Assembly: GCA_044229975.1 (NCBI GenBank)
Contig: JBGARZ010000009.1
Coordinates: 91,947-155,946, forward strand
Source: Polyangiales bacterium
GTDB taxonomy: Bacteria; Myxococcota_A; Polyangia; Polyangiales; Ga0077539
Length of the DNA: 64,000 nt
Direction of reading: 5' to 3'
A program made the position numbers and the translations under genes. Shown here piece by piece: positions 7,077 to 44,671 of the stretch (positions are counted from its first letter, which is position 1; every line of letters starts with the position of its first letter). Under the pieces are notes generated by a model, which worked only from the letters and a program-made list of their open reading frames with translations, did not search any database and was not told the origin of the DNA.

Positions 7077-10000
7077 ATGATCAACCGATATGACTGCGCG
7101 CGGGTTCAAGAAGAGCTCGCGGCGCTGGCCGATGACGCCATCCCGGAAGAGGCCGCCGCGCACCTGGCCGGGTGCGACGACTGCCGCGACCTGCTCCACG
7201 ACGCGCGCATCGCCGCCCAGACGCTGCGAGGCGGAGCGGGCGCGGACTTCGTCGCGATGGACGGCGACGCGCTCGCCGCGAAGGTGCTCAGTGCCATCGA
7301 CGGGCGGATGTCGAAGGCGACGCCCGTGCACGGGACGCCGATGGCGGTGACCGTCGCGCAGACCTCACCCCCCAGCCCTCTCTCCCTGGCAGGAGAGGGG
7401 GAGCCGAAGGGAGAGGCACCTCTTCCCGTCGCTGTTCCTACGGCCGTTGCCTCTGCCTCTGGCTCCCCCTCTCCTGCCAGGGAGAGGGGGTTGGGGGGTG
7501 AGGTCTCGCCCCCAAAGGCGAGAGGTGAGGTCGCCCGTCGACGCATCGGCGCGTCCATCTGGGGCGCGGGGTTGTTCGCGGCGGCGGCGTCCGTGGCGGT
7601 CGTGGTGGTCGCGATGCGCGGCCCGTCGACGACACCCGCCAACGCGCCCGATGGCTCCTCGCCCGAGACGCCGCGCGGCCCCGTCGGGCCGTGGCACGCG
7701 ACGCTCGGCCGGGCGCTCGGCGCGGGCGTCGAGGTGAAGGCCGCGGGCGCGTCGGACTTCGCCGCGCTGCGTGAGCGCGGGGTCATCGGGCAGGGAGCGA
7801 CGGTACGCACCGACGCCCGCACCCGCGCCCGCATCGACCTCGACGACGGCACCGTGCTCGTCCTCGATCGCGCGACCACGCTGGTGCTCGACCCGAGCGC
7901 GCCACGCCACGCCCGCATCGTCGAGGGAACCCTCGTCGCCGACGTCGCCCACCGCGACGACGCCCCGCCCGCGGTGCTCACCACGGCGCAGGGAGACGTG
8001 CGGGTGCTCGGGACGAAGTTCGCCGTGAGCGCGTCCAACGATCACACCACCGTGCAGGTCACCCGCGGCGTGGTGCGGCTCGGCCAGGCGTCGAGCGACG
8101 GCGTCGAGGTGAAGACCGGCCAGGAGGCCGTGCTCGCCCGCGGTCAGGTGAGCGTGTCGCCGGCCGTCAACCTGGGCGGTCGCGTGGCGTGGTCGGAGCT
8201 CAACGCCCCCGACGACACCACCACCAGCTCCGGCCTCGGTGAGCTGCGCGCGCGCCGCCCCGGCAGCACCGCCGAACGCGATCAGGCCGTGCACCTCGCC
8301 GAGCATCAGGTGCGCGTTCGCATCGTCGGCAACGTGGCGCGCACCGAGATCGAGGAGGTGTTTCGCAACGACACGGGCAGCGAACTCGAAGGGCTCTACC
8401 GCTTTCCGCTGCCGCCCGAGGCGCAGGTGGAAGAGCTCGCCCTCGACGTCGACGGTCGCATGGAACCCGGCGCCTTCGTCGACCGCGACCGCGCGGCGGC
8501 CATCTGGCGCGGGGTCATCCACCACGCGGCGCCCAACACGCCGCCGCCGAGGGAGGAGTACGTCTGGGTGCCTGGTCCGTGGCGTGATCCGGCGCTGCTG
8601 GAGTGGCAGCGGGGTGGGCGCTTCGAGCTGCGGGTGTTTCCCATCCCGGCACGCGGCGCGCGGCGCGTGCGCATCGCGTACACGCAGACCATCGCGCCAT
8701 CGGGCGGCGGACTGCGGCGCTACGTCTACCCGCTGCCCCACGACCCGGGGGGGAGCACCCGCGTCGATCACATGAGCATGGACGTGCAGGTGCTCGGCCA
8801 CAGCGGGACGCAGCCCGCCCGCGTGCTGGGCTACCCCTTCGCGGCCGCCGACACCTCCGCCGCGGCCTCGCGGTGGACCTTCGCGCGCGACAACTTCACC
8901 CCGTCGGGCGACGTGGTGATGGAGTACGCGCTCGGCGACGCGACCGTGCCGGTGACGGCCTGGGGCTACGCCGAGCCGACCAACACCGAAGGGGCGTACG
9001 TGGCCCTCGCGCTGCGACCGCAGCTCCCGCGCTGGGGCGAGGCGAGGCCGCGGGACTACGTCTTCGTGGTCGACGCGAGCCGCTCCATGGTGGGCGAGCG
9101 CTACGCCCGCGCGACCCGTCTGCTCAGCTCCATCGTCTCGGAGATGGACCGCCGCGATCGGCTCACGGTGCTCGCCTGCGACGTTCGGTGCGTGGCGATG
9201 CGGGAGGGGATGGTCCCGGCGAGCGCGGAGGTGTCGCGGCAGGTGAGCGGGTGGTTGCAGGCGCGCGAGCCCGCCGGCGGGAGCGACCTCGGCGCGGCGG
9301 TGCGGGCGGCGGCGAGCGCGACGCGTTCGACCCCGGACGACCGCGACGTGCGCGTGGTGTACCTGGGCGACGGCGCGTCGACGGTGGGCCACCGGCGCCC
9401 GACGACGCTGGCGCTGGAGGTGACGACGGCGCTGCCCGCGCGCAAGGCGACGTTCACCGCGGTGGCGGTAGGAGCAGAAGCGGACACCACGACGCTCGCG
9501 GCGATGGCGCGGGCGGGTGGTGGGGTGGTGGTTCCGTACCTGCCGGGCGAGGCGAGGACGGGGGCGGCGCTCTCGGTGCTCGAAGCGACGTATGGGGCGG
9601 TGCTGCGCGACCCGGAGGTGACGCTGCCGTCGGGGCTGGTGTCCATGGCGCCAGCGCGACCCGACAACCTGCGCGCGGGCTCCGAGGCCGTCATCACGGC
9701 GCGGATGCTCCCCGGCGTGCGCGAGGTCGAGGGCGAGGTGGTGCTCCGCGGAACGGTCGCCGGCGAAGCCTTCGAGGCGCGCTACCCGATCACGGTGCGG
9801 GCGACGGAGGACGCGGGGAATGCGTTTGTTCCGCGGCTGTTTGGCGCGGCGCGCATCGCTGATCTCGAAGCGGGCGGCGAGCCCGGCGCGCGGGCCGAGA
9901 TGGTGGCGCTGTCGCAGCGGTTTCACCTGGCGAGCCGGTACACGTCGCTGCTGGTGCTGGAGAGCCCGGCGATGTTTCGCGCCTTCGGGGTGGAGCGCAC

Positions 10001-11450
10001 GGCGGGCGGCGTGACGTGGACGGGCGAGACCGAGGCGCTCGCGACGGGCGCCACGGCGACCACGGCCGATGCGAGCGGCGAGGAGGAGCAGCGCACGGCC
10101 GCGGAGGACAACGCATCGACCGAGGCGCTCGGCGGCCTGGCGGCGGCGCACGGCCGCGGAGGCGCGGCGAGCGAACGAGCGTCGACGGAGCCGGAGCCCG
10201 ACATGGTCGAAGCGCCCCGTCGGGAGAACAGCGCGGGGTACGGCCATGTCCAGCAGGTGCCGGCGACGACGACGACGATGCCGCGGCCCGCGCCGGTGGT
10301 CGCGGCGGCGCCGGCCGCGCCTGCGGCGATCTCACAGGCCAACAGCGGGATGCTCGACAACGACGACCTCCAGCGGAGAGGTCCGGCGGCGGCGGCGACC
10401 CGGATGCGTCGCGACGTGGCGGTCGATCGACCGTGGGCGGGAGGCGGTCGCTGGATGCGACGGACGTGGGTGCGTCACGCGGCGGTGAGCGCGCCGGTCG
10501 TGTCGGCGGAGTCGCTGCGGACGCGCATCGAGGCGGCGCGGCGCGCGCTCGGGGAGAACCCCAACAGCCGCGATCGTCACCGGGAGTTGTTCCGGTGGCT
10601 GTCGCTGGCGGGCGAGCTCGACGAGGCGGCGCGGGTGGCCGAGGCGTGGATCGCGCGCGACCCGCTGGACGCCGACGCGCTGATGCGGCTGTCGGACGTG
10701 GCGGCGCGGCGGGGCGATCGTCTGCGGGCGATGCGCTGGCTGGGCGGCGTGGCGGACGTTCGGCAGGACGACGCGCTGCTGCTCGACCGGCTGGCGATGA
10801 TGCACGCGCGGGCCGGGGACGCCGAGACGGCGTGCGCGTACCGGGTGGCGTCGGCGGAGTCGCGGAGCAGCGACGCGACGAAGGTGGCCGAGGCGGTGCG
10901 GTGCGAGCGGGCGCTGGGGCGCGAGATGTTCGCGGGGCGGATGCTCGATCTGTTGACGGACGCGGCGCAGCGATCGCGGGCGGAGTCGCTGGCGATGGGC
11001 AGCGGGGCGGACGTGTTCGCGAGCGTGCGCGGCGAGCTGCTGGCGCAGGCGACGTGGGACGTGGGGGTCGACCTCGACGTGGTGTTCATTGATCCGAACG
11101 GGGTGCGCGTGTCGTGGCAGGGCGGCCGCGCGGGGACGACGGTCAACGAGCCGATGGGCAACGGGCGCGAGTCGCTGGCGCTGGGTCGGCTGGCGACGGG
11201 CGACTGGCGGGTGGAGGTGGTGCGCACCGACCGCGAGGTGACGGGCGCGCAGGACGAGGACGACGCGACGCCGCGGACGGTGGTGCGCGGGAGCGTGACG
11301 CTGACGGCGCTGGGCGAGCGGCGGGTGCTGCCGTTTACGCTGACGGGGACGCGCGCACCGGTGGGCCGCGTGGTGGTGACGCGGGAGGAGCAGCTGGTGC
11401 CAGCGGGTCCGCCGCCGCCGGGCGCGCAGTTGGAGATGAGGCGCTGGTAG
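7077..11450 (+). CDS. Giant anti-sigma factor: zf-HC2, TM, FecR, VIT, vWA and TPR-like C-terminal region
   Basis: 1457 aa. N-terminus has the zf-HC2 motif (C..HLAGCDDC). A TM helix (IGASIWGAGLFAAAASVAVVVVAM) follows. Then a FecR domain (GATVRTDARTRARIDLDDGTVLVLDRAT), a VIT domain (VRIVGNVARTEIEEVFRNDTGSELEGLYRFPLP), a vWA domain (DYVFVVDASRSMVG...VVYLGDGASTVG), and helical repeats plus a beta-rich tail. Confidence 0.8.
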   Translation: MINRYDCARVQEELAALADDAIPEEAAAHLAGCDDCRDLLHDARIAAQTLRGGAGADFVAMDGDALAAKVLSAIDGRMSKATPVHGTPMAVTVAQTSPPSPLSLAGEGEPKGEAPLPVAVPTAVASASGSPSPARERGLGGEVSPPKARGEVARRRIGASIWGAGLFAAAASVAVVVVAMRGPSTTPANAPDGSSPETPRGPVGPWHATLGRALGAGVEVKAAGASDFAALRERGVIGQGATVRTDARTRARIDLDDGTVLVLDRATTLVLDPSAPRHARIVEGTLVADVAHRDDAPPAVLTTAQGDVRVLGTKFAVSASNDHTTVQVTRGVVRLGQASSDGVEVKTGQEAVLARGQVSVSPAVNLGGRVAWSELNAPDDTTTSSGLGELRARRPGSTAERDQAVHLAEHQVRVRIVGNVARTEIEEVFRNDTGSELEGLYRFPLPPEAQVEELALDVDGRMEPGAFVDRDRAAAIWRGVIHHAAPNTPPPREEYVWVPGPWRDPALLEWQRGGRFELRVFPIPARGARRVRIAYTQTIAPSGGGLRRYVYPLPHDPGGSTRVDHMSMDVQVLGHSGTQPARVLGYPFAAADTSAAASRWTFARDNFTPSGDVVMEYALGDATVPVTAWGYAEPTNTEGAYVALALRPQLPRWGEARPRDYVFVVDASRSMVGERYARATRLLSSIVSEMDRRDRLTVLACDVRCVAMREGMVPASAEVSRQVSGWLQAREPAGGSDLGAAVRAAASATRSTPDDRDVRVVYLGDGASTVGHRRPTTLALEVTTALPARKATFTAVAVGAEADTTTLAAMARAGGGVVVPYLPGEARTGAALSVLEATYGAVLRDPEVTLPSGLVSMAPARPDNLRAGSEAVITARMLPGVREVEGEVVLRGTVAGEAFEARYPITVRATEDAGNAFVPRLFGAARIADLEAGGEPGARAEMVALSQRFHLASRYTSLLVLESPAMFRAFGVERTAGGVTWTGETEALATGATATTADASGEEEQRTAAEDNASTEALGGLAAAHGRGGAASERASTEPEPDMVEAPRRENSAGYGHVQQVPATTTTMPRPAPVVAAAPAAPAAISQANSGMLDNDDLQRRGPAAAATRMRRDVAVDRPWAGGGRWMRRTWVRHAAVSAPVVSAESLRTRIEAARRALGENPNSRDRHRELFRWLSLAGELDEAARVAEAWIARDPLDADALMRLSDVAARRGDRLRAMRWLGGVADVRQDDALLLDRLAMMHARAGDAETACAYRVASAESRSSDATKVAEAVRCERALGREMFAGRMLDLLTDAAQRSRAESLAMGSGADVFASVRGELLAQATWDVGVDLDVVFIDPNGVRVSWQGGRAGTTVNEPMGNGRESLALGRLATGDWRVEVVRTDREVTGAQDEDDATPRTVVRGSVTLTALGERRVLPFTLTGTRAPVGRVVVTREEQLVPAGPPPPGAQLEMRRW
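7361..7506. repeat. MITE-like element with ~41-bp near-perfect terminal inverted repeats, inserted inside the anti-sigma CDS
   Basis: Left arm gacctcaccccccagccctctctccctggcaggagaggggg (7361-7401). Right arm ccccctctcctgccagggagagggggttggggggtgaggtc (7466-7506) is its reverse complement with about 3 mismatches. The ORF reads through it as a Pro/Ser/Gly/Glu-rich linker. Confidence 0.75.
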
Positions 11451-19293: not shown

Positions 19294-20439
19294 ATGGGCT
19301 ACCTGTTCGAGACCGACGAGCACCGGGAGCTGCGCGCCCAGATGGAGCGCTTCGCCTCAGCGGAGATCGCGCCACACGCCGACGCGTGGGAAGAGGCCGA
19401 GGAGTTTCCGCGCGAGCTCTACACGAAGGCCGGATCGCTGGGGCTGTTGGGTCTCGGCTACCCCGAGGCGTACGGCGGCGGCGGGGGCGACCTCTCTCAC
19501 GTCGTCGCCGCGAGCGAGTCGATGGTGCTCGCGGGTCGCTCGGTGGGCGTCACCGTCGGCCTCGGGAGCCACGGCATCGCGCTGCCTCCCATCCTCCGAT
19601 CGGGGACGGAGGCGCAGAAGCAGCGGTGGGTTCCGCCGGTGGTGCGCGGGGAGAAGATCGCGGCGCTCGCCATCACGGAGCCCGGCGGCGGCAGCGACGT
19701 GGCCAACCTGAAGACGCGCGCCGAGCGGGTCGGCGATGAGCTGGTGATCAATGGGAGCAAGACGTTCATCACGTCGGGGGTGCGGGCCGACCTGGTGACG
19801 GTGGCGGTGCGAACGGGCGGCAGCGGGCACGGCGGCGTGTCGCTGGTGGTGGTCGAGCGCGGCACCCCGGGGTTTACCGTGGGTCGTAAGCTGAAGAAGA
19901 TGGGCTGGTGGGCGTCGGACACGGCGGAGCTGCACTTCGAGGACTGCCGCGTGCCGATGGAAGACGTCGTCGGCGAGGTCGACCAGGGCTTCGTGACGAT
20001 CATGCAGAACTTCGCGACGGAGCGGGTGTTTCTCGCGGCGCAGTGCGTGGCCATCGCGACGCTCGCGTACCAGGAGTCGGTCGCGTACGCGCGGGAGCGG
20101 GTGGCGTTTGGGAAGCCGCTGAGCGGCTTTCAGGTGACGCGGCACAAGCTGGCGGAGATGGCGACGCGCATCGCGGCGGCGCGGGCGCTGACGGGCGAGG
20201 TGGTGACGCGGGTGATGGCCGGCGACGTCGCGGCGACGGGCATGGCGGCGATGGCGAAAAACGTCGCGACGGACATGTGCAGCGCGGTCTGCGACGAGGC
20301 GGTGCAGATACACGGCGGGTACGGCTACATGCGCGGCTACCTGGTCGAGCGGCTCTACCGCGACGCGCGGCTGTACCCGATTGGGGGTGGCACGCGCGAG
20401 ATCATGAATGAGATCATCGGCAAGCTCGAAGGGTATTGA
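19294..20439 (+). CDS. Acyl-CoA dehydrogenase
   Basis: 381 aa with canonical ACAD N-terminal, middle and C-terminal domains (ALAITEPGGGSDVANLKTRAERVGDELVINGSKTFITSG; catalytic region IHGGYGYMRGYLVERLYRDARLYPIGGGTREI). Confidence 0.9.
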   Translation: MGYLFETDEHRELRAQMERFASAEIAPHADAWEEAEEFPRELYTKAGSLGLLGLGYPEAYGGGGGDLSHVVAASESMVLAGRSVGVTVGLGSHGIALPPILRSGTEAQKQRWVPPVVRGEKIAALAITEPGGGSDVANLKTRAERVGDELVINGSKTFITSGVRADLVTVAVRTGGSGHGGVSLVVVERGTPGFTVGRKLKKMGWWASDTAELHFEDCRVPMEDVVGEVDQGFVTIMQNFATERVFLAAQCVAIATLAYQESVAYARERVAFGKPLSGFQVTRHKLAEMATRIAAARALTGEVVTRVMAGDVAATGMAAMAKNVATDMCSAVCDEAVQIHGGYGYMRGYLVERLYRDARLYPIGGGTREIMNEIIGKLEGY

Positions 20440-20468
20440 GCACAACGGCTGAGGGAGACAGTGACGAC

Positions 20469-21416
20469 ATGAGCAAGAAGATCATCGCGGTGACCGGCGC
20501 CACGGGCGCGCAGGGCGGCGGCCTCGCCCGCGCCATTCTCGACGACGCCTCCGGGGAGTTCACGCTGCGCGCCATCACGCGCAAGCCCGACAGCGACAAG
20601 GCTCGCGCGCTCGCCGACCGCGGCGCCGAGGTGGTGGCCGCCGACCTCGACGACCAGGCCAGCCTGGAGAGGGCCTTCGCGGGCGCGTATGGGGCGTTCT
20701 GCGTGACCAACTTCTGGGAGCACTTCTCGGGCGAGAAGGAGACCGCGCAGGCCCGCTCGCTCGCGGCGGCGGCGAAGGCCGCGAAGGTCTCGCACGTGAT
20801 CTGGTCGACCTTCGAGGACACGCGCGACCTGGTGCCCCTCTCCGACGACCGGATGCCGACGCTCCACGGGAAGTACAAGGTCCCGCACTTCGACTCGAAG
20901 GGAGAGGCGAACAGCGCCTTCACCGGGTCGGGCGTGCCCACGACGCTGCTGCTCACGTCGTTCTATTGGGACAACCTGATCCACTTCGGGATGGGGCCGA
21001 AGAAGGGCGCCGACGGAAAGCTGTCGTTCGTGCTGCCGATGGCCGACAAGAAGCTCCCGGGCATCGCCGCGGGCGACATCGGCGGCTGCGCCTACGGCGT
21101 CTTCAAGCGGGGCACCGAGTTCCAGGGGAAGACCGTCGGCGTGGCGGGCGAGCACCTCACCGGCGACCAGATGGCGGCGGCGCTCTCGCAGGCGCTGGAG
21201 CAGCCCGTCTCCTACGCGTACGTCCCGCCGGAGGTGTACCGCACGTTCGGGTTCCCGGGCGCCGACGACCTGGGCAACATGTTCCAGTACAAGCGTGACT
21301 TCGAGACGCAGTACTGCGGCGCCCGCGACGTCGCCCTCTGCCGCTCGCTCAACCCGGGCCTCCAGACCTTCGCGCAGTGGCTCTCGCGCCACAAGGCGCA
21401 GATCACGGTCGGCTGA
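20469..21416 (+). CDS. NmrA-family NAD(P)-binding protein
   Basis: Start MSKKIIAVTGATGAQGGG (Rossmann GxxGxxG) with GAGGGAGA upstream. NmrA/HSCARG-like fold throughout. Confidence 0.8.
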   Translation: MSKKIIAVTGATGAQGGGLARAILDDASGEFTLRAITRKPDSDKARALADRGAEVVAADLDDQASLERAFAGAYGAFCVTNFWEHFSGEKETAQARSLAAAAKAAKVSHVIWSTFEDTRDLVPLSDDRMPTLHGKYKVPHFDSKGEANSAFTGSGVPTTLLLTSFYWDNLIHFGMGPKKGADGKLSFVLPMADKKLPGIAAGDIGGCAYGVFKRGTEFQGKTVGVAGEHLTGDQMAAALSQALEQPVSYAYVPPEVYRTFGFPGADDLGNMFQYKRDFETQYCGARDVALCRSLNPGLQTFAQWLSRHKAQITVG

Positions 21417-21460
21417 CAGAGAGCCCTCTCATTCAAGCGGGCGGTGATGTTGTCCGCCCG

Positions 21461-21707
21461 GACGCCGGAGTTCGCGTGCCCCCATGAGGCGGGGTGCAGT
21501 CGCTCACTCCGGGCTATTTCAGGTCGTCACCCCGCGACGCGGGGTTGCAGAGAATCCGCTCGTCTTCACGCCTGTGATGGGTTTGTTGAGTGAGTGGCCG
21601 CGGACACGACCCTGACCCTGCAACCCCGCGTCGCGGGGTGACGACCTGAAATAGCCCGGAGTGAGCGACTGCACCCCGCCTCATGGGGGCACGCGAACTC
21701 CGGCGTC
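21461..21707. repeat. 247-bp near-perfect palindrome (about 90-bp arms, about 67-bp loop); family copy 1
   Basis: Arms 21461-21550 and 21618-21707 are exact reverse complements (gacgccggagttcgcgtgcccccatgaggcggggtgcagtcgctcactccgggctatttcaggtcgtcaccccgcgacgcggggttgcag). Lies between the convergent genes ending at 21416 (+) and 21736 (-). Confidence 0.9.
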
Positions 21708-21735
21708 CACCGGACGAGATCACCAACCACTCAAA

Positions 21736-22383
21736 TCAGGGCACCACCGACACCGTCCGCCGGGCCACCACGTGGCCGTCCCACTCCAGCACCAGCCGAT
21801 ACTCTCCGGGCGCGGGCATCAGCGCTTCGATGATGGTTCGCGCGTCGCGCACGACGTGCCCAGCCGGGAGATCGAACCACTCGTTGACCCGCGGCCCGTT
21901 GCCAAAGGCCAGGTCGAACACCTGCGACGGAACCCCGTTGACCAGCAGCCGCAGACGATCGCGCTCGGGCTGCACCACACCGGATGAATTGTTGGTCGCG
22001 GAGATCTCCAGGCGGGTCGTCGCTCGCGCGCTCATGCGGATGCCGTCGGAGAGCGTGAGGTGCCACGTAAGCAGCGCCACCGCGGGCGGCAACGGAGTGG
22101 GGCGCGGCCGCGGCGGAGCGCCGTACGGAGCGACGATGGCGGGGTGCGCTTCGACGTACGCATCGGCGCGCGGCGGCGGGTTGGCGAGGGCCGCGCCGCG
22201 CTCGCATCCGGTGAGGGTGAGCGACGCCCCGAGGGCGACGAGCGCCGCACGCGACGCCCCGCGGGGAAGCTCCAACGACGGTGCGTCGTGAGTCACCACA
22301 AGCGCCGCGCAGAAGGGGCACCGCGCGTCCGTGGAGCGCACGTGCCGCGAGCATCCGACACACACCACCAGCATCGTCGACAT
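21736..22383 (-). CDS. Hypothetical protein with N-terminal zinc ribbon (CxxC...CxxC), a TM segment and a Pro-rich linker
   Basis: 215 aa from the ATG at 22383 (MSTMLVVCVGCSRHVRSTDARCPFCAALVV...). The upstream part of the track ORF is noise. Confidence 0.45.
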   Translation of the reverse strand: MSTMLVVCVGCSRHVRSTDARCPFCAALVVTHDAPSLELPRGASRAALVALGASLTLTGCERGAALANPPPRADAYVEAHPAIVAPYGAPPRPRPTPLPPAVALLTWHLTLSDGIRMSARATTRLEISATNNSSGVVQPERDRLRLLVNGVPSQVFDLAFGNGPRVNEWFDLPAGHVVRDARTIIEALMPAPGEYRLVLEWDGHVVARRTVSVVP

Positions 22384-34514: not shown

Positions 34515-35423
34515 TCAGTCGTCGGCGAAGACGGCGTCGAGGGAGACGGCGTCGAGGGCACGGTCGGCCCAGCGCTCGATGCGCGCGACGTCGGTCGTCG
34601 CGAGCAGACGCGCCTCGACGTCGGCAGTCACCGCGAAGCCCCTACGTCGGAGGATGCGCATGAGCAGTCGGGCTTCACCGCGGGCTTCACCGCGGGCTTC
34701 ACCGCGAGCCTCGCCCTCGGCGCGGAGGTCAGCCTTCCACTGCTCCAGCGCCGGGTTCTTGGGGAGTTGATTGATGTCGATCATCGCGGCTCTCCTCACC
34801 TGCTCCAACACCGACGGGTGCAGCACAGACATGATGCCTTCCTGCGTCGCCCGTCGCAATCGTTCGTCCTCTACCGCGTCGCTGCGATCGAGCGCACGTC
34901 GCGCCAGGTCGAGCGCGCGGCGACCCTTGCGCCCCTGCGTCACCCACGCGGCGAACACCGCCATCTCGGGCGGTCCCTTCGCGAGGATCACCTCCGCTTC
35001 GGCGAGCCCCAGGAGCAGCACGGTGGGCACGACGCCCCAACGGGTCGTTCCCTTCTTGTGCATCGCCACGCGCTGAGCCCAGCGCGCGACCGCCGCTGCA
35101 GCCGTGATGACGATGAGCTCTCCGTGGGGCCCGAAGCGATCGCCCATGATCGCCATCGCGAGCGGCCATCGCCGCGCCTTCTCCGCGTCGCGCTGCCGCT
35201 GCACCTCGATGATGACCCAGCGGCGCACCTTGCGAGCGTCCGGGCTTCGCAGCACCAGGTCGGGCGCCACATCGACGGTCAGCGCCGTGCGCAGCACCGA
35301 GTCCTCCACCTCCAACTGCGAGGGGCACGGCGCGTGACCCGTGAGGTCGAGCAGCGTGCGGAGCTGCGACGGATCGTCCCGCAGCCACAGGAGCACCGAT
35401 TCGTGGATCGTCGTAGGTGGCAT
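34515..35423 (-). CDS. Rpn/YhgA-like family protein (PD-(D/E)XK recombination-promoting nuclease / putative transposase) with C-terminal DUF4351-like region
   Basis: About 302 aa from the ATG at 35423 (MPPTTIHESVLLWLR...). Core VIIEVQRQRDAEKARRWPLAMAIM. C-terminal LRILRRRGFAVTADVEARL. Contains an in-frame (EARG)x4 repeat. Confidence 0.65.
   Translation of the reverse strand: MPPTTIHESVLLWLRDDPSQLRTLLDLTGHAPCPSQLEVEDSVLRTALTVDVAPDLVLRSPDARKVRRWVIIEVQRQRDAEKARRWPLAMAIMGDRFGPHGELIVITAAAAVARWAQRVAMHKKGTTRWGVVPTVLLLGLAEAEVILAKGPPEMAVFAAWVTQGRKGRRALDLARRALDRSDAVEDERLRRATQEGIMSVLHPSVLEQVRRAAMIDINQLPKNPALEQWKADLRAEGEARGEARGEARGEARLLMRILRRRGFAVTADVEARLLATTDVARIERWADRALDAVSLDAVFADD
34670..34717. repeat. 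12-bp tandem repeat x3 plus a partial copy (gggcttcaccgc), in-frame inside the Rpn-like gene
   Basis: Copies at 34670-34681, 34682-34693 and 34694-34705, then a diverged copy. Encodes AEGEARGEARGEARGEAR on the minus strand. Confidence 0.85.
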
Positions 35424-35531
35424 GCGACGCAGACATCGCAGCGTGCATGCCACGCGTATTCATCGAAAAACAAAGCATCGCCGGGGTGGCGGCGGGGTGG
35501 CGGCGAGGGGTGGCGGTGACGTGCCGCGAGC

Positions 35532-39892: not shown

Positions 39893-39988
39893 GGCCGCAA
39901 GGGCGCCAGGGTCGCAAGGGAGGAACGAACAGCGCGACTCATCAACACCTCATCTCATCTTGTCCTTGCGACCCTGGCGTCCTTGCGG
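39893..39988. repeat. Hairpin of the same motif family as 2511-2634 (arms ccgcaagggcgccagggtcgcaagg / ccttgcgaccctggcgtccttgcgg, about 38-nt AT-rich loop)
   Basis: About 25-bp arms, 24/25 complementary. Shares the CGCAAGGGCGC[AC]AGGGTCGCAAGG core with 2511-2538. Confidence 0.7.
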
Positions 39989-39991
39989 CTT

Positions 39992-41971: not shown

Positions 41972-43093
41972 ATGCACTTGAACCTCTCCCCTCGCGGGAC
42001 CCTCGTCACCCTCCTCGGCCTCTCCCTCTTCGCGGTCTCGACCGGCCACGCCCAGCACCATCGGCGCGGCCCAGCGGCCCCGGCCTGCACGGTCGCCCAG
42101 CACCCCTCCGACGGCCACTGCTGCGACGGCGGCGAGGAGTGGGTTCCAGCCCGCGCGCGCTGCATGTGCGTCGATGGTGTGGACATCTGCCAGCGCCTCG
42201 CGGCCGCTGCCGCTGCCGCTGCTGCACCCCCGCCTGCACCGCCGCCGGTGGTGGTCGTCGCCCCGCCGCCGCCTCCCCCGTCGCGCTGCGGCCCGGACAT
42301 GGTGCTGGTGGAAAACGCCATCTTCAACATGGGCGCCGCCGCGGGTCAGCCGGGCGACCGCAATGAGACGCCCGCCCACCGCGTGTCGCTCTCGCCGTAC
42401 TGCATCGACCGCACGGAGGTGAGCGTTCATCGCTACCAGGAGTGCACCACCTGCGCCTCGACCAGCACCGTGCAGTTTCCTGCCATCCCGGCCGCGCAGG
42501 TCCCGGCCTGGAACCAGCTCTGCAACGCCAACCGCGCCGACCGCGCCGACCATCCGATGAACTGCGTCGACTGGGCGCAGGCCAACGCCTACTGCCGCTC
42601 GCGCGGCGCCCGTCTCCCCACCGAGGCCGAGTGGGAGTTCGCCGCCCGCGGCGCCGAGACGCGCACCTACCCGTGGGGCGAGGCCGCTCCGTCTCCCGAC
42701 CGCGTCAACGCCTGCGACGCCGACTGCGTGGCGCTGCTCACCCGCAGCAACATCCCGCGCCCGACCGGGGTCTTCCCCGGCAGCGACGGCCACGGCGGAA
42801 CCGGCCCGGCGGGCGCGTACATCAGCGGCGCCTCGCCCCTCAACCTCCTCGACATGGCGGGCAACGTGATGGAGTGGACCGCCGACTGGTTCGGCCCCTA
42901 CAACGCCGCCCCGGCCATCGACCCGACGGGCGCGACCGCGGGCACCGACCGCATCGCCCGCGGCGGCCACTGGTTCTCCAGCGCCCCGACCGCGCTGCGC
43001 ACCACCGCCCGTGTCCCGGCCAACCCGAGCTTCCGCCTCGCCACGCTGGGCTTCCGCTGCGCCAGCGCGCCGCTCCCCGCGCCGCCGCGCTGA
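41972..43093 (+). CDS. Formylglycine-generating-enzyme (FGE/SUMF1) sulfatase-modifying domain protein
   Basis: 373 aa. Signal peptide, Cys-rich module, poly-Ala/Pro linker, then FGE domain (HRVSLSPYCIDRTEV...MNCVDWAQANAYCRSRGARLPTEAEWEFAARG...GNVMEWTADWF...ARGGHWFS...RVPANPSFRLATLGFRC). Confidence 0.8.
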   Translation: MHLNLSPRGTLVTLLGLSLFAVSTGHAQHHRRGPAAPACTVAQHPSDGHCCDGGEEWVPARARCMCVDGVDICQRLAAAAAAAAAPPPAPPPVVVVAPPPPPPSRCGPDMVLVENAIFNMGAAAGQPGDRNETPAHRVSLSPYCIDRTEVSVHRYQECTTCASTSTVQFPAIPAAQVPAWNQLCNANRADRADHPMNCVDWAQANAYCRSRGARLPTEAEWEFAARGAETRTYPWGEAAPSPDRVNACDADCVALLTRSNIPRPTGVFPGSDGHGGTGPAGAYISGASPLNLLDMAGNVMEWTADWFGPYNAAPAIDPTGATAGTDRIARGGHWFSSAPTALRTTARVPANPSFRLATLGFRCASAPLPAPPR

Positions 43094-43097
43094 CCCG

Positions 43098-43439
43098 ATG
43101 CGCGTCCTCACACCACTCGCCGTCGTCGCCCTGCTGGGGTGCTCGTCTGGCCCCACGCACCACTTCCACGTGCTCAATGTTCGGCACACCGCGCGGCCGA
43201 CGCCGTGCGTCCCGGCCGAGGTGCAGGTGCACACCGACCGCGGCCCGTCGACGGCGCGCGAGATCATCGCCGTGCTCACCGCCGAGTGCGACAACGACCA
43301 CCCCGATCAGTGCCGCAGCGCCCTCCAGCGCGCGGCCTGCGAGGTCAACGCCGACGCGGTGGTGACGGCGCTCGCCCGCCCGCTACCCCGCAGCCGCCTG
43401 CGCCTCATCGGCGACGCCGTGGAGTGGCAGGCGCCGTAG
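43098..43439 (+). CDS. Small lipoprotein
   Basis: 113 aa from the ATG at 43098, which overlaps the FGE stop. MRVLTPLAVVALLGCSSG (lipobox LLGC). Confidence 0.5.
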   Translation: MRVLTPLAVVALLGCSSGPTHHFHVLNVRHTARPTPCVPAEVQVHTDRGPSTAREIIAVLTAECDNDHPDQCRSALQRAACEVNADAVVTALARPLPRSRLRLIGDAVEWQAP

Positions 43440-43450
43440 CCCCGCCCGAG

Positions 43451-43710
43451 GCCGCTGCGCCCGCGGGCCGGAGTTCGCGTGACCCCATTGCGGGTGCGTG
43501 CAGTCGCTCACGCCGGGCTATTTCACGGGGTCACCTCGCTGCGCGAGGTTGCAGGAACTCTCGATCGGCGATGGACGAGGCGACGGGTTGCTCGTTGAGA
43601 CCAGAGCTGCAACCTCGCGCAGCGAGGTGACCCCGTGAAACAGCCCGGCGTGAGCGACTGCACGCACCCGCAATGGGGTCACGCGAACTCCGGCCCGCGG
43701 GCGCAGCGGC
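43451..43710. repeat. 260-bp near-perfect palindrome; family copy 2 (same family as 21461-21707)
   Basis: Arms share the blocks ccggagttcgcgtg, tgcagtcgctcac and ccgggctatttca with copy 1. The inner stem differs (cacctcgctgcgcgaggttgcag versus caccccgcgacgcggggttgcag), but each copy remains self-complementary. Lies between the convergent genes ending at 43439 (+) and 43716 (-). Confidence 0.9.
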
Positions 43711-43715
43711 CCTCC

Positions 43716-44591
43716 CTATCCCCCGGCGGTCGCCTCGTGAGCCCACGGGTCGCGCCCGTTGGTGCGATCGATCACCGACTCGCCCCGCAGCTCGCGCACC
43801 ACCACCGAGGCCGCCACGAGTCCGAAGGTGCCCGTCACCCACGCGGCGCTGCCGTCGATGCGCGCGCGCTTCTCACACGTGTGCATCCCGTTGTCGGACT
43901 GCGGGCACACACACTGGAACCCGTGGTCGTGGTCGTACGCGAGCTCCGTCGGCGCGATGGGCGTCTCCTCACTGAACACACACGGAACCCCCGTCGGCAT
44001 CGACGGGCGCAGCCGCCAGCCGTGCTTGGTGCGCATGATCTCGCGGAAGTGGTGGGCCATCGGGTCGTGCCGGGTGCGCGCGAGGTCGTCGACCCGGACC
44101 TTCGTCGGATCGATGCGGGCCGCCGCGCCCATCACGCTCACCACCGGGATTCCCCTCCGACGGCAGGTCGCCACGAGGTGGGCCTTGGCGGTGAGGTTGT
44201 CGATGGCGTCGACGACGTAGTCCACCCCCTCGCCCAGCACCGCCTCGCTGTTGTCCACGTTGTAGAACTCCGCCCTCGCCGTGACGCTCCCCGTCGGGTG
44301 GATGAGTCGCAGTCGCTCGGCCACGACCTCCACCTTCGGGCGCCCGATGTTGCCGCGCATCGCGTGGAGCTGGCGGTTGGTGTTGGTCACGCACACGAGG
44401 TCGAAGTCGACCAGGGTGATGTTGCCCACCGCCGTGCGTGCGAGCGCTTCGGCGGCGAAGCTCCCGACGCCGCCGAGGCCGACGACCATGACCTTTGCGC
44501 TCGCGAGGGTGCGCATCGCGGGCTCGCCGAGGAGCCTCGCCGCGCGGTCGAAGCGACGGTGGGTGCGGTAGCTCTCGTCGACGTCTGCCAT
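43716..44591 (-). CDS. ThiF/MoeB-family protein, tRNA threonylcarbamoyladenosine dehydratase (TcdA/CsdL)-like
   Basis: About 292 aa from MADVDESYRTHRRFDRAARLLGEPAMRTLASAKVMVVGLGGVGS (E1-like Rossmann). TcdA-type C-terminus. Confidence 0.8.
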   Translation of the reverse strand: MADVDESYRTHRRFDRAARLLGEPAMRTLASAKVMVVGLGGVGSFAAEALARTAVGNITLVDFDLVCVTNTNRQLHAMRGNIGRPKVEVVAERLRLIHPTGSVTARAEFYNVDNSEAVLGEGVDYVVDAIDNLTAKAHLVATCRRRGIPVVSVMGAAARIDPTKVRVDDLARTRHDPMAHHFREIMRTKHGWRLRPSMPTGVPCVFSEETPIAPTELAYDHDHGFQCVCPQSDNGMHTCEKRARIDGSAAWVTGTFGLVAASVVVRELRGESVIDRTNGRDPWAHEATAGG

Positions 44592-44671
44592 GGCCGTCGG
44601 GTCTTCTACCGTATGCCGCAACATTTAGCGCCCTTGCCGGTGCTGCGGCGTGAGCGTATGTCGCCCGCACC

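Follow-up and report, generated by a model that had tools for sequence, protein, structure and literature searches.

A mobile palindromic element of a Polyangiales bacterium, probably a MITE with arms homogenised at the DNA level

The long palindrome at positions 43450-43711 of a 64,000-nucleotide stretch of DNA from a Polyangiales bacterium (the window) is probably a non-autonomous MITE that exists in several copies, each about 280-304 bp long, and its arms are probably homogenised by exchange at the DNA level. The element is built from two long inverted arms, each composed of an 87-nt highly conserved core and a variable outer part of 11-33 nt, around a conserved spacer of 52-67 nt, and it inserts as a discrete unit with TCA on each side. 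After insertion, exchange between the arms, by homologous recombination or gene conversion between close inverted repeats or by template switching during replication, would place each substitution on both arms, would occasionally invert the spacer and could extend the palindrome outward into the flanking DNA. The "compensatory" changes would then arise as a side effect of arms that evolve in concert as DNA. The blocks that do not vary are probably sites required for mobilisation by a transposase encoded elsewhere, and an effect of a transcript hairpin between the convergent genes, if there is any, would be secondary.

Structure of the two copies in the window

The palindrome under study, designated copy 2, is an inverted repeat with arms of 105 nt each (43450-43554 and 43607-43711), complementary at 104 of the 105 positions (99%), around a spacer of 52 nt. 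The lone arm-to-arm mismatch, an A at 43520 opposite a C at 43641, corrects the preliminary description, according to which the copy was perfectly self-complementary. On the lipoprotein side the arm begins with a locus-specific outer mirrored segment, GGCCGCTGCGCCCGCGGG (43450..43467), to which, as to the other outer features named below, no strand is assigned. It is followed by the core left arm of 87 nt, CCGGAGTTCGCGTG...GGTTGCAG (43468..43554, plus strand), which contains invariant blocks and the intra-arm hairpin B (43533-43549). The spacer (43555..43606, plus strand) is homologous among the copies and includes two 12-nt units, CGATGGACGAGN and CGAYGGGTTGCT. The core right arm, likewise of 87 nt (43607..43693, minus strand), leads to the outer mirrored segment on the ThiF side (43694..43711), which repeats 43450-43467 exactly in inverted orientation. 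The single-strand fold of copy 2 has an energy of -274 kcal/mol (z = -30).

Copy 1 lies at 21432..21735 and comprises, as judged by comparison of the filled with an empty site, a complete inserted element of 304 nt. Its perfect palindrome has arms of 91 nt (21460-21550 and 21618-21708) that are 100% complementary, and a spacer of 67 nt (21551-21617). The true ends of copy 1 are situated 33 nt outward of the perfect palindrome and form an imperfect inverted repeat (21432-21464 and 21704-21735), TTCAAGCGGGCGGTGATGTTGTCCG... versus TTTGAGTGGTTGGTGATCTCGTCCG..., with the termini TTCAAGCGG... and TTTGAGTGG..., which corresponds to the terminal inverted repeats of a MITE. The outer ends are only about 70% alike, whereas the inner arms are perfect. 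The same comparison places the left copy of a duplicated target TCA at 21429..21431 and the right copy at 21736..21738, where it coincides with the TGA stop codon of the minus-strand gene at 21736-22374.

Alignment of the two copies in both orientations defines a common core that spans CCGGAGTTCGCGTG to GGTTGCAG. The three outer blocks that were described as common to the copies, CCGGAGTTCGCGTG, TGCAGTCGCTCAC and CCGGGCTATTTCA, are found in each of the four arms but at no other site of the window, for which looser matches to the shared blocks are expected by chance 0.3-3.4 times. The two copies differ in 14 of the 87 core columns, and all 14 differences are mirrored on the opposite arm, in agreement with the matching changes seen initially; one further column is unmirrored. 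The inner stems are copy-specific, as had been stated, and each is also a local hairpin within a single arm. In copy 2 this is hairpin B, ACCTCGC-TGC-GCGAGGT, located at 43533-43549 and 43612-43628, and in the arm of copy 1 it reads ACCCCGC-GAC-GCGGGGT. Neither the arms nor the outer ends of the element recur elsewhere in the window, the long inverted repeats of which are copy 2, copy 1 and an unrelated one at 7360-7506.

Copy 2 is approached from one side by a gene for a small lipoprotein of 113 amino acids with the lipobox LLGC (43098..43439, plus strand), recognised by the GC3 frame plot and its translation. The gene has a GC3 of about 0.95, and contig L061 encodes a 95% orthologue, P0121. 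From the other side converges the gene of a ThiF-family tRNA threonylcarbamoyladenosine dehydratase (TcdA-like; 43716..44624, minus strand), identified by Pfam PF00899 and the names of homologues. The convergence of the two genes, with ends at 43439 and 43716, was part of the preliminary description and is upheld. The genes that converge on copy 1 encode an NmrA-like protein (20436..21416, plus strand; Pfam PF05368 and GC3) and a hypothetical protein of 212 amino acids that is identical to P0126 (21736..22374, minus strand). Like copies 1 and 2, the copy on contig L049 is located between convergent genes, and the gene ends that adjoin the metagenome copies are 3' ends in five of seven cases; the copies on L044 and L045 are located at gene 5' ends. 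In the window, which has a G+C content of about 71%, coding composition is absent from every reading frame that crosses the element, as is expected of a MITE.

Distribution and conservation of the family

The nearest ThiF relatives belong to uncultured Myxococcaceae/Myxococcales genomes, and the material closest to the window comes from wastewater-type metagenomes. The two-block arm pattern matched six contigs of metagenome Ga0075163, each of which represents another locus, and further copies were found on L052, L053, L056 and L061 through the 96% ThiF and the 95% lipoprotein orthologues. The family of palindromic, mobile and noncoding elements that had been postulated is thus real: it has at least nine further loci in related genomes and a pair of filled and empty sites. 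With two copies in the 64-kb window and at least seven loci in the Ga0075163 relative, the element is dispersed in the manner of a MITE.

The core, CCGGAG to TTGCAG, is present in every copy, as is a spacer homologous to that of the other copies. Across 13 arms, 58 of the 87 core columns are invariant, and several whole blocks are without variation. The arms are near-perfect and 91-112 nt long; their variable outer part amounts to 11-33 nt, the range of lengths of the right outer segment. Between copies, 3-14 of the 87 positions differ, whereas arm-to-arm mismatches within a copy number 0/91, 1/105, 1/112, 0/42 and 0/57; the metagenomic copy on L061 has three mismatches between its arms over 63 nt. 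The arm-to-arm mismatches include A/C and G/C transversions, and wobble-compatible changes are not preferred. In L045 the spacer contains a 12-nt unit, ACGAGTCGATGG, in at least eight tandem copies up to the end of the contig (L045 1-105). Relative to the asymmetric ends of the element, the spacer has the forward orientation in roughly five copies and the reverse orientation in two.

Since about 0.6 Mb of Myxococcota loci with ThiF identities of 90% or less contained no copy in searches with an arm profile (nhmmer), the family is confined to a narrow lineage. The exact pattern of the central blocks had no match in 185,579 GTDB representative genomes, plasmids and phages gave no match to the arms (blastn), and viral contigs gave none to the two-block pattern. 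At the gathering threshold Rfam recognised two tRNAs in the window and nothing on the element; permissive E-values added only generic matches to microRNA-precursor hairpins, which reflect the long hairpin. No synteny was apparent between the window and the metagenome contigs; given the coverage, none was expected. The inverted repeats on L007, L009, L010 and L011 were considered as relatives and rejected, as they are unrelated mirrored tandem arrays.

Insertion and target site

Comparison of filled with empty sites demonstrates directly that the element is mobile. In the 91% (L066-L075) and 89% (L065) relatives, the convergent pair of the copy 1 locus, a hypothetical gene and an NmrA-like gene followed by an acyl-CoA dehydrogenase gene, is separated by 9-10 nt, whereas the window has 319 nt at this place. 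L065 has the empty site TGA-CGGAGCCCTC-TCA-GGGCACC and the window the filled site TGA-CAGAGAGCCCTC-TCA / 304 nt / TCA-GGGCACC, and deletion of 21432-21735 together with one TCA recreates the empty site of L065 exactly. The TCA that is single at the empty sites of L065 and L066-L075 is present on both sides of copy 1, as would be the duplicated target of a MITE. A 3-bp duplication of the "TNA type" may point to the IS5/IS1031-like groups. Because the duplicated TCA is itself the TGA stop codon of the gene at 21736-22374, the gene was left intact.

The target of copy 1 is the loop of a small hairpin, GCCC-TCTCA-GGGC. The element on L049 has 281 nt, TCA on both sides and the left end TCA/TTCAGGCG, from which the target GGGG-TCTCA-CCCC is reconstructed; the left end on L045 reads TCTCA/TTCGAGCGG. 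TCTCA precedes all three recognisable left ends, and both targets that can be reconstructed consist of a short G/C stem with a TCTCA loop near gene ends. An element with a terminal TCA of its own that inserted 3' of TCTCA would leave the same 3-bp repeat as a true duplication, and the two are indistinguishable. A rule by which a TGA stop codon always adjoins the right end was abandoned, as it is proven for copy 1 only; in L046-L048 the arrangement may be coincidental (24 of 34 genes end in TGA).

Copy 2 at the orthologous locus

In the 96% ThiF relative, copy 2 is found between the same two genes, ThiF and lipoprotein. The outer segment GGCCGCTGCGCCCGCGGG has a counterpart there, GGTCGCTGCGCCTGCGGG, which agrees with it at 16 of 18 positions, versus 5-9 of 18 in comparisons with the other copies. 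The spacer of copy 2 is also closest to that of this relative, with 46 of 52 matches as the reverse complement and 13 of 52 in direct orientation. Three independent assemblies show the opposite orientation of the spacer, L061 when read from the lipoprotein gene and L056 and L052 when read from ThiF; the orientation in the window derives from the assembly alone, in which perfect repeats of about 100 nt could cause mis-assembly. The relative carries the outer segment on the lipoprotein side only, with just GGG between the ThiF stop codon and the core, and the palindrome of the window extends 19 nt beyond that of the relative, immediately beside the ThiF stop codon. The 19-nt difference may represent a gain in the window or a loss in the relative.

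The matches of the outer segment and the spacer argue against independent insertions and suggest that copy 2 is shared with the 96% relative by descent. Independent insertions in opposite orientations, less likely in view of these matches, are kept as a caveat because the stretches between the lipoprotein stop codon and the outer segment, 10 nt in one lineage versus 21 nt in the other, are unalignable. The argument for homogenisation of the arms in place rests on this probable orthology.

The fourfold-degenerate sites of the two flanking genes diverge between the window and the relative by 21% and 17%, and the neutral divergence was taken as about 20%. Independent decay of the arms would have led to roughly 15 or more arm-to-arm mismatches; observed were 1 in 105 positions in the window and 0 in 57 in L056. 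Over the 57 nt for which both arms of the relative are known, three of the substitutions between the window and the relative are mirrored and one is unmirrored. The arms at the orthologous locus diverge about 3.5 times more slowly than the fourfold sites (5/87 versus 47/237, p = 0.002).

Why the arms match

The mirrored substitutions, the inverted spacer and the 19-nt extension of the palindrome point to recombination or gene conversion between the arms. The slower-than-neutral divergence of the arms is beyond what unbiased gene conversion alone accounts for, and selection at the sequence level or exchange between copies is also needed. Slow divergence together with the invariant blocks indicates that the primary sequence is constrained as well, which fits sites for mobilisation. 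The preliminary description had proposed selection or gene conversion for structure rather than for primary sequence. The part concerning gene conversion is favoured by the data, whereas selection for structure over primary sequence lacks support, in that blocks are invariant in the 13 arms and covariation is about zero. Within the arms, the covariation term of RNAalifold amounts to 0.18 kcal/mol, with one double-changed pair, and the program yields a plausible two-hairpin fold without covariation. Single arms fold no better than shuffled sequences, except for one orientation of copy 1.

Exchange of this kind has precedents. In the human Y palindrome P6, gene conversion reportedly proceeds from arm to arm, and such conversion is the accepted cause of near-identity between the arms of large palindromes. 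Recombination between the terminal repeats of an insertion sequence inverts its interior (Ling and Cordaux 2010, PMC3004938). These systems resemble the element in that exchange between the arms inverts the interior and keeps the arms nearly identical while they diverge from those of relatives. However, the precedents concern full-length insertion sequences with short terminal repeats or palindromes of many kb, whereas here the same process would act on an element of 300 bp, as judged from one orthologous pair.

The arms could instead have become identical only at transposition and have decayed independently thereafter, which we regard as rather unlikely. A single-stranded DNA consisting of one arm and the spacer, or of a hairpin, might have acquired its second arm by fold-back priming; alternatively, an HUH/Y1-type enzyme (IS200/IS605- or RAYT-like) might recognise hairpins and insert 3' of TCTCA without a true duplication. 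The TCTCA hairpin loops at both reconstructable targets and the TCTCA ahead of the three recognisable left ends are in line with such a route, as are the asymmetric ends, with a right outer segment that varies from 11 to 33 nt, and the use of hairpin B of each arm as a target by a separate IS-like end, the module X described below. The recent copy 1, perfect inside and with outer ends that are about 70% alike, suggests that perfection was already a property of the master copy. Against identity acquired only at transposition stands copy 2, which appears to be older than the split from the 96% relative, at a neutral divergence of about 20%, yet matches at 104 of 105 positions in the window and at 57 of 57 in L056. 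Since an old copy is still nearly perfect in both lineages, homogenisation in place is needed. In addition, long terminal inverted repeats are missing from IS200/IS605 elements, and the window and the fetched loci showed no Y1/HUH gene.

A broader scheme, unlikely in our estimate, would amount to a hitherto undescribed mode of mobility. The element would move via a long single-stranded DNA hairpin intermediate that is aimed at small hairpin loops at gene ends, often at a stop codon. The first arm would serve to rebuild the second, whether during transposition or through ongoing template switching, and the palindrome could thereby grow outward into the host sequence. In a variant of the scheme, the host would have adopted the element as a flip-capable hairpin boundary between convergent genes.

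That selection maintains the palindrome as a transcript hairpin, be it a bidirectional terminator, a stabiliser of 3' ends or an RNase III site, and that the arm changes are truly compensatory for pairing in RNA or a cruciform, is improbable. The window copies and L049 do lie between convergent genes, five of the seven adjoining gene ends are 3' ends, the predicted hairpin is extremely stable, and hairpin B contains one double change, UA to CG, that preserves pairing. But a bidirectional intrinsic terminator consists of a short G+C-rich stem-loop with a U-tract; the element has a stem of about 100 bp and neither a U-tract nor a T-run, and a terminator scan of 43000-44200 was negative. No Rfam family matched. 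Because one mismatch hardly alters the energy of a -274 kcal/mol stem some 100 bp long, selection for pairing acts weakly here and could not hold the arms 99-100% identical, and the mismatches that occur include A/C and G/C transversions, beyond wobble pairing. The placement of the L044 and L045 copies at 5' ends of genes, the closest relatives that do without the element and have 9-10 nt between the same convergent genes, and the near absence of intra-arm covariation likewise speak against a selected transcript.

A programmed DNA switch, in which a dedicated recombinase acts on the arms and flips the 52-nt spacer with a regulatory signal on it, would explain why the spacer occurs in both orientations among copies and between orthologues, but is very improbable, as a promoter scan found nothing in or around the spacer, no recombinase gene adjoins either window copy, the convergent ends of the neighbouring lipoprotein and ThiF genes offer nothing obvious to regulate, and arms of about 100 bp far exceed recombinase sites while sufficing for homologous recombination.

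Comparison with known mobile elements

According to the preliminary description, the family is not a standard annotated feature. Elements of this kind, MITEs and REPINs, are already described, and in its architecture the element is closest to REPINs, in its mobility signature closest to MITEs.

MITE-type comparators are Correia/CREE, Nezha and MITEAba12 (reviews PMC10969869, PMC11602168). Like these, the element is about 300 bp long, noncoding and multicopy, has terminal inverted repeats and a short target repeat, resides in intergenic DNA, is polymorphic for presence and absence between close relatives and encodes no transposase. The sizes of 304 nt (copy 1) and 281 nt (L049) fall within the range of about 50-800 bp for MITEs, and the element agrees with MITEs in every property that could be tested. 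Unlike in typical MITEs, the inverted repeats occupy about 80% of the length, the inner 87-112 nt are 99-100% identical within a copy whereas the true termini are only about 70% alike, and the target is the loop of a small hairpin. A parent insertion sequence, or any transposase partner with matching ends, was not found in the window or the fetched loci.

REPINs are doublets of REP sequences that form hairpins and depend on RAYT transposases for their mobility; the paper that describes them already reports compensatory changes in the two halves of the hairpin (Bertels and Rainey 2011, PMC3116915). The element shares with them two inverted modules, each with a small hairpin, that are joined by a spacer and fold into one long hairpin. 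In both, the modules are highly conserved, compensatory changes in the hairpins are common, and dispersed extragenic copies persist at orthologous loci. In contrast to REPINs, with REP units of 20-40 nt and a total length of about 70-110 nt, the arms have 87-120 nt and the element 281-304 nt, that is, about three times the length. It further differs by the 3-bp flanking repeat and by the lack of sequence similarity; no GTAG/CGTC-type REP head was seen in it, and no RAYT-type gene adjoins either window copy.

A possible resemblance to palindromic elements derived from IS200/IS605, which insert 3' of a fixed target of 4-5 nt, and to other mobile DNA that targets hairpins is no more than a lead. 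It concerns the association with hairpins, the asymmetric ends and TCTCA 5' of the three recognisable left ends. Long terminal inverted repeats and target duplications are foreign to the IS200/IS605 family, whereas the element has long inverted repeats and a TCA repeat open to both readings. TnpA and TnpB were not seen with the element.

Other repeats in the window and on related contigs

The third long inverted repeat of the window (7360-7506) is an unrelated palindromic element of the same build. Its arms of 59 nt are 92% complementary and each include a CCCTCTCTCCC/GGAGAGGGGG hairpin, and its spacer measures 29 nt. The motif of the arms is found again in the 85% ThiF relative (L003 11400-11428), and its family seems to be more widespread than that of the element studied here.

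Several contigs contain a further sequence, module X (GTTCACYTCGGGACACA...), at L047 1-119, L048 1-110, L053 1621-1723, L044 4952-5017 and L003 11433-11502. It always joins 2 nt past a hairpin loop, either that of hairpin B in one or the other arm of the MITE or that of a CCCTCTCCC hairpin in L003. The contigs break about 100-125 nt into module X, and the terminal open reading frame, which looks coding, has a tail of 25 amino acids that ends in ...DLISHGMA*. Module X resembles one end of a different insertion sequence that is present in several copies. That it is the interior of a full-length parent of the MITE was rejected: it joins hairpin B from either arm (L044, L048 and L053 versus L047) and also the unrelated hairpin of L003, and by the same token it appears to be a separate element that targets hairpins. 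At the ThiF locus of L053 (1545-1723), from a wastewater assembly, the proximal arm is joined to module X, where L056 and L061 continue into the spacer and the second arm; the junction reflects either an IS that has truly inserted in some members of the population or a chimeric assembly at the repeat.

Inverted arms of a CGCAAGG unit (...CCGCAAGGGCGCAAGGGTCGCAAGG...) are found in the window at 2514-2538 and 39895-39991, in L044 at 1440-1995 and in L004 at 11222-11376. They enclose about 490 nt with an open reading frame in L044 and about 50 nt in the window, where the repeat is possibly a remnant. A stretch of about 140 nt in the window (35378-35516) is 83% identical to L044 2041-2178, on contigs that cannot otherwise be aligned. 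It matches in several frames, looks noncoding and ends in repeats of the GGTGGCGGCGG type, and could represent a small RNA, a conserved leader or a further repeat. Within L044, at 1533, 14 nt match the right terminus of the element, an observation that led no further.

Large mirrored arrays occur in other Myxococcales MAGs (L007 11930-12570, L010 8790-9470, L011 9370-9750, L009 9476-9635, L003 10995-11140). They consist of several tandem units of 34-60 nt with inverted copies opposite and a central segment between them; in L003, 48-nt tandem repeats follow directly after ThiF. The arrays of L003, L007, L009, L010 and L011 have no sequence relation to the element.

The proteins of the window are also recorded in run SRR28480386 and in NCBI assembly GCA_044228995.1. 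This assembly holds two copy 1 loci, L063 (contig JBGATW010000151.1), which is 100% identical to the window and carries the element, and L065 (contig JBGATW010000039.1), which is 89% identical and lacks it. Since both versions of the locus are present, the bin seems to mix two related populations. Short-read contigs of the source organism end within palindromes, and Logan contigs break inside a conserved block of the element.

Significance

For Myxococcota, no MITE or REPIN family came to light in the literature searched; the element adds to the phylum a well-delimited MITE family with unusual traits: very long homogenised arms, a target that combines a hairpin loop with a stop codon, and a spacer that flips. 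One orthologous locus displays mirrored substitutions, inversion of the spacer and extension of the palindrome together. The element is a clean natural example of why a selected RNA structure should not be deduced from mirrored changes in a palindrome of DNA. Short-read assemblies break at its perfect repeats, which are about 100 bp long; a number of MAG and Logan contigs stop within them, and some assemblies join an arm to other repeats, which matters for the binning and annotation of wastewater Myxococcota. The preference for hairpin loops and stop codons, and the IS-like element that lands on the hairpin of the MITE, are testable leads on how such elements choose their targets.
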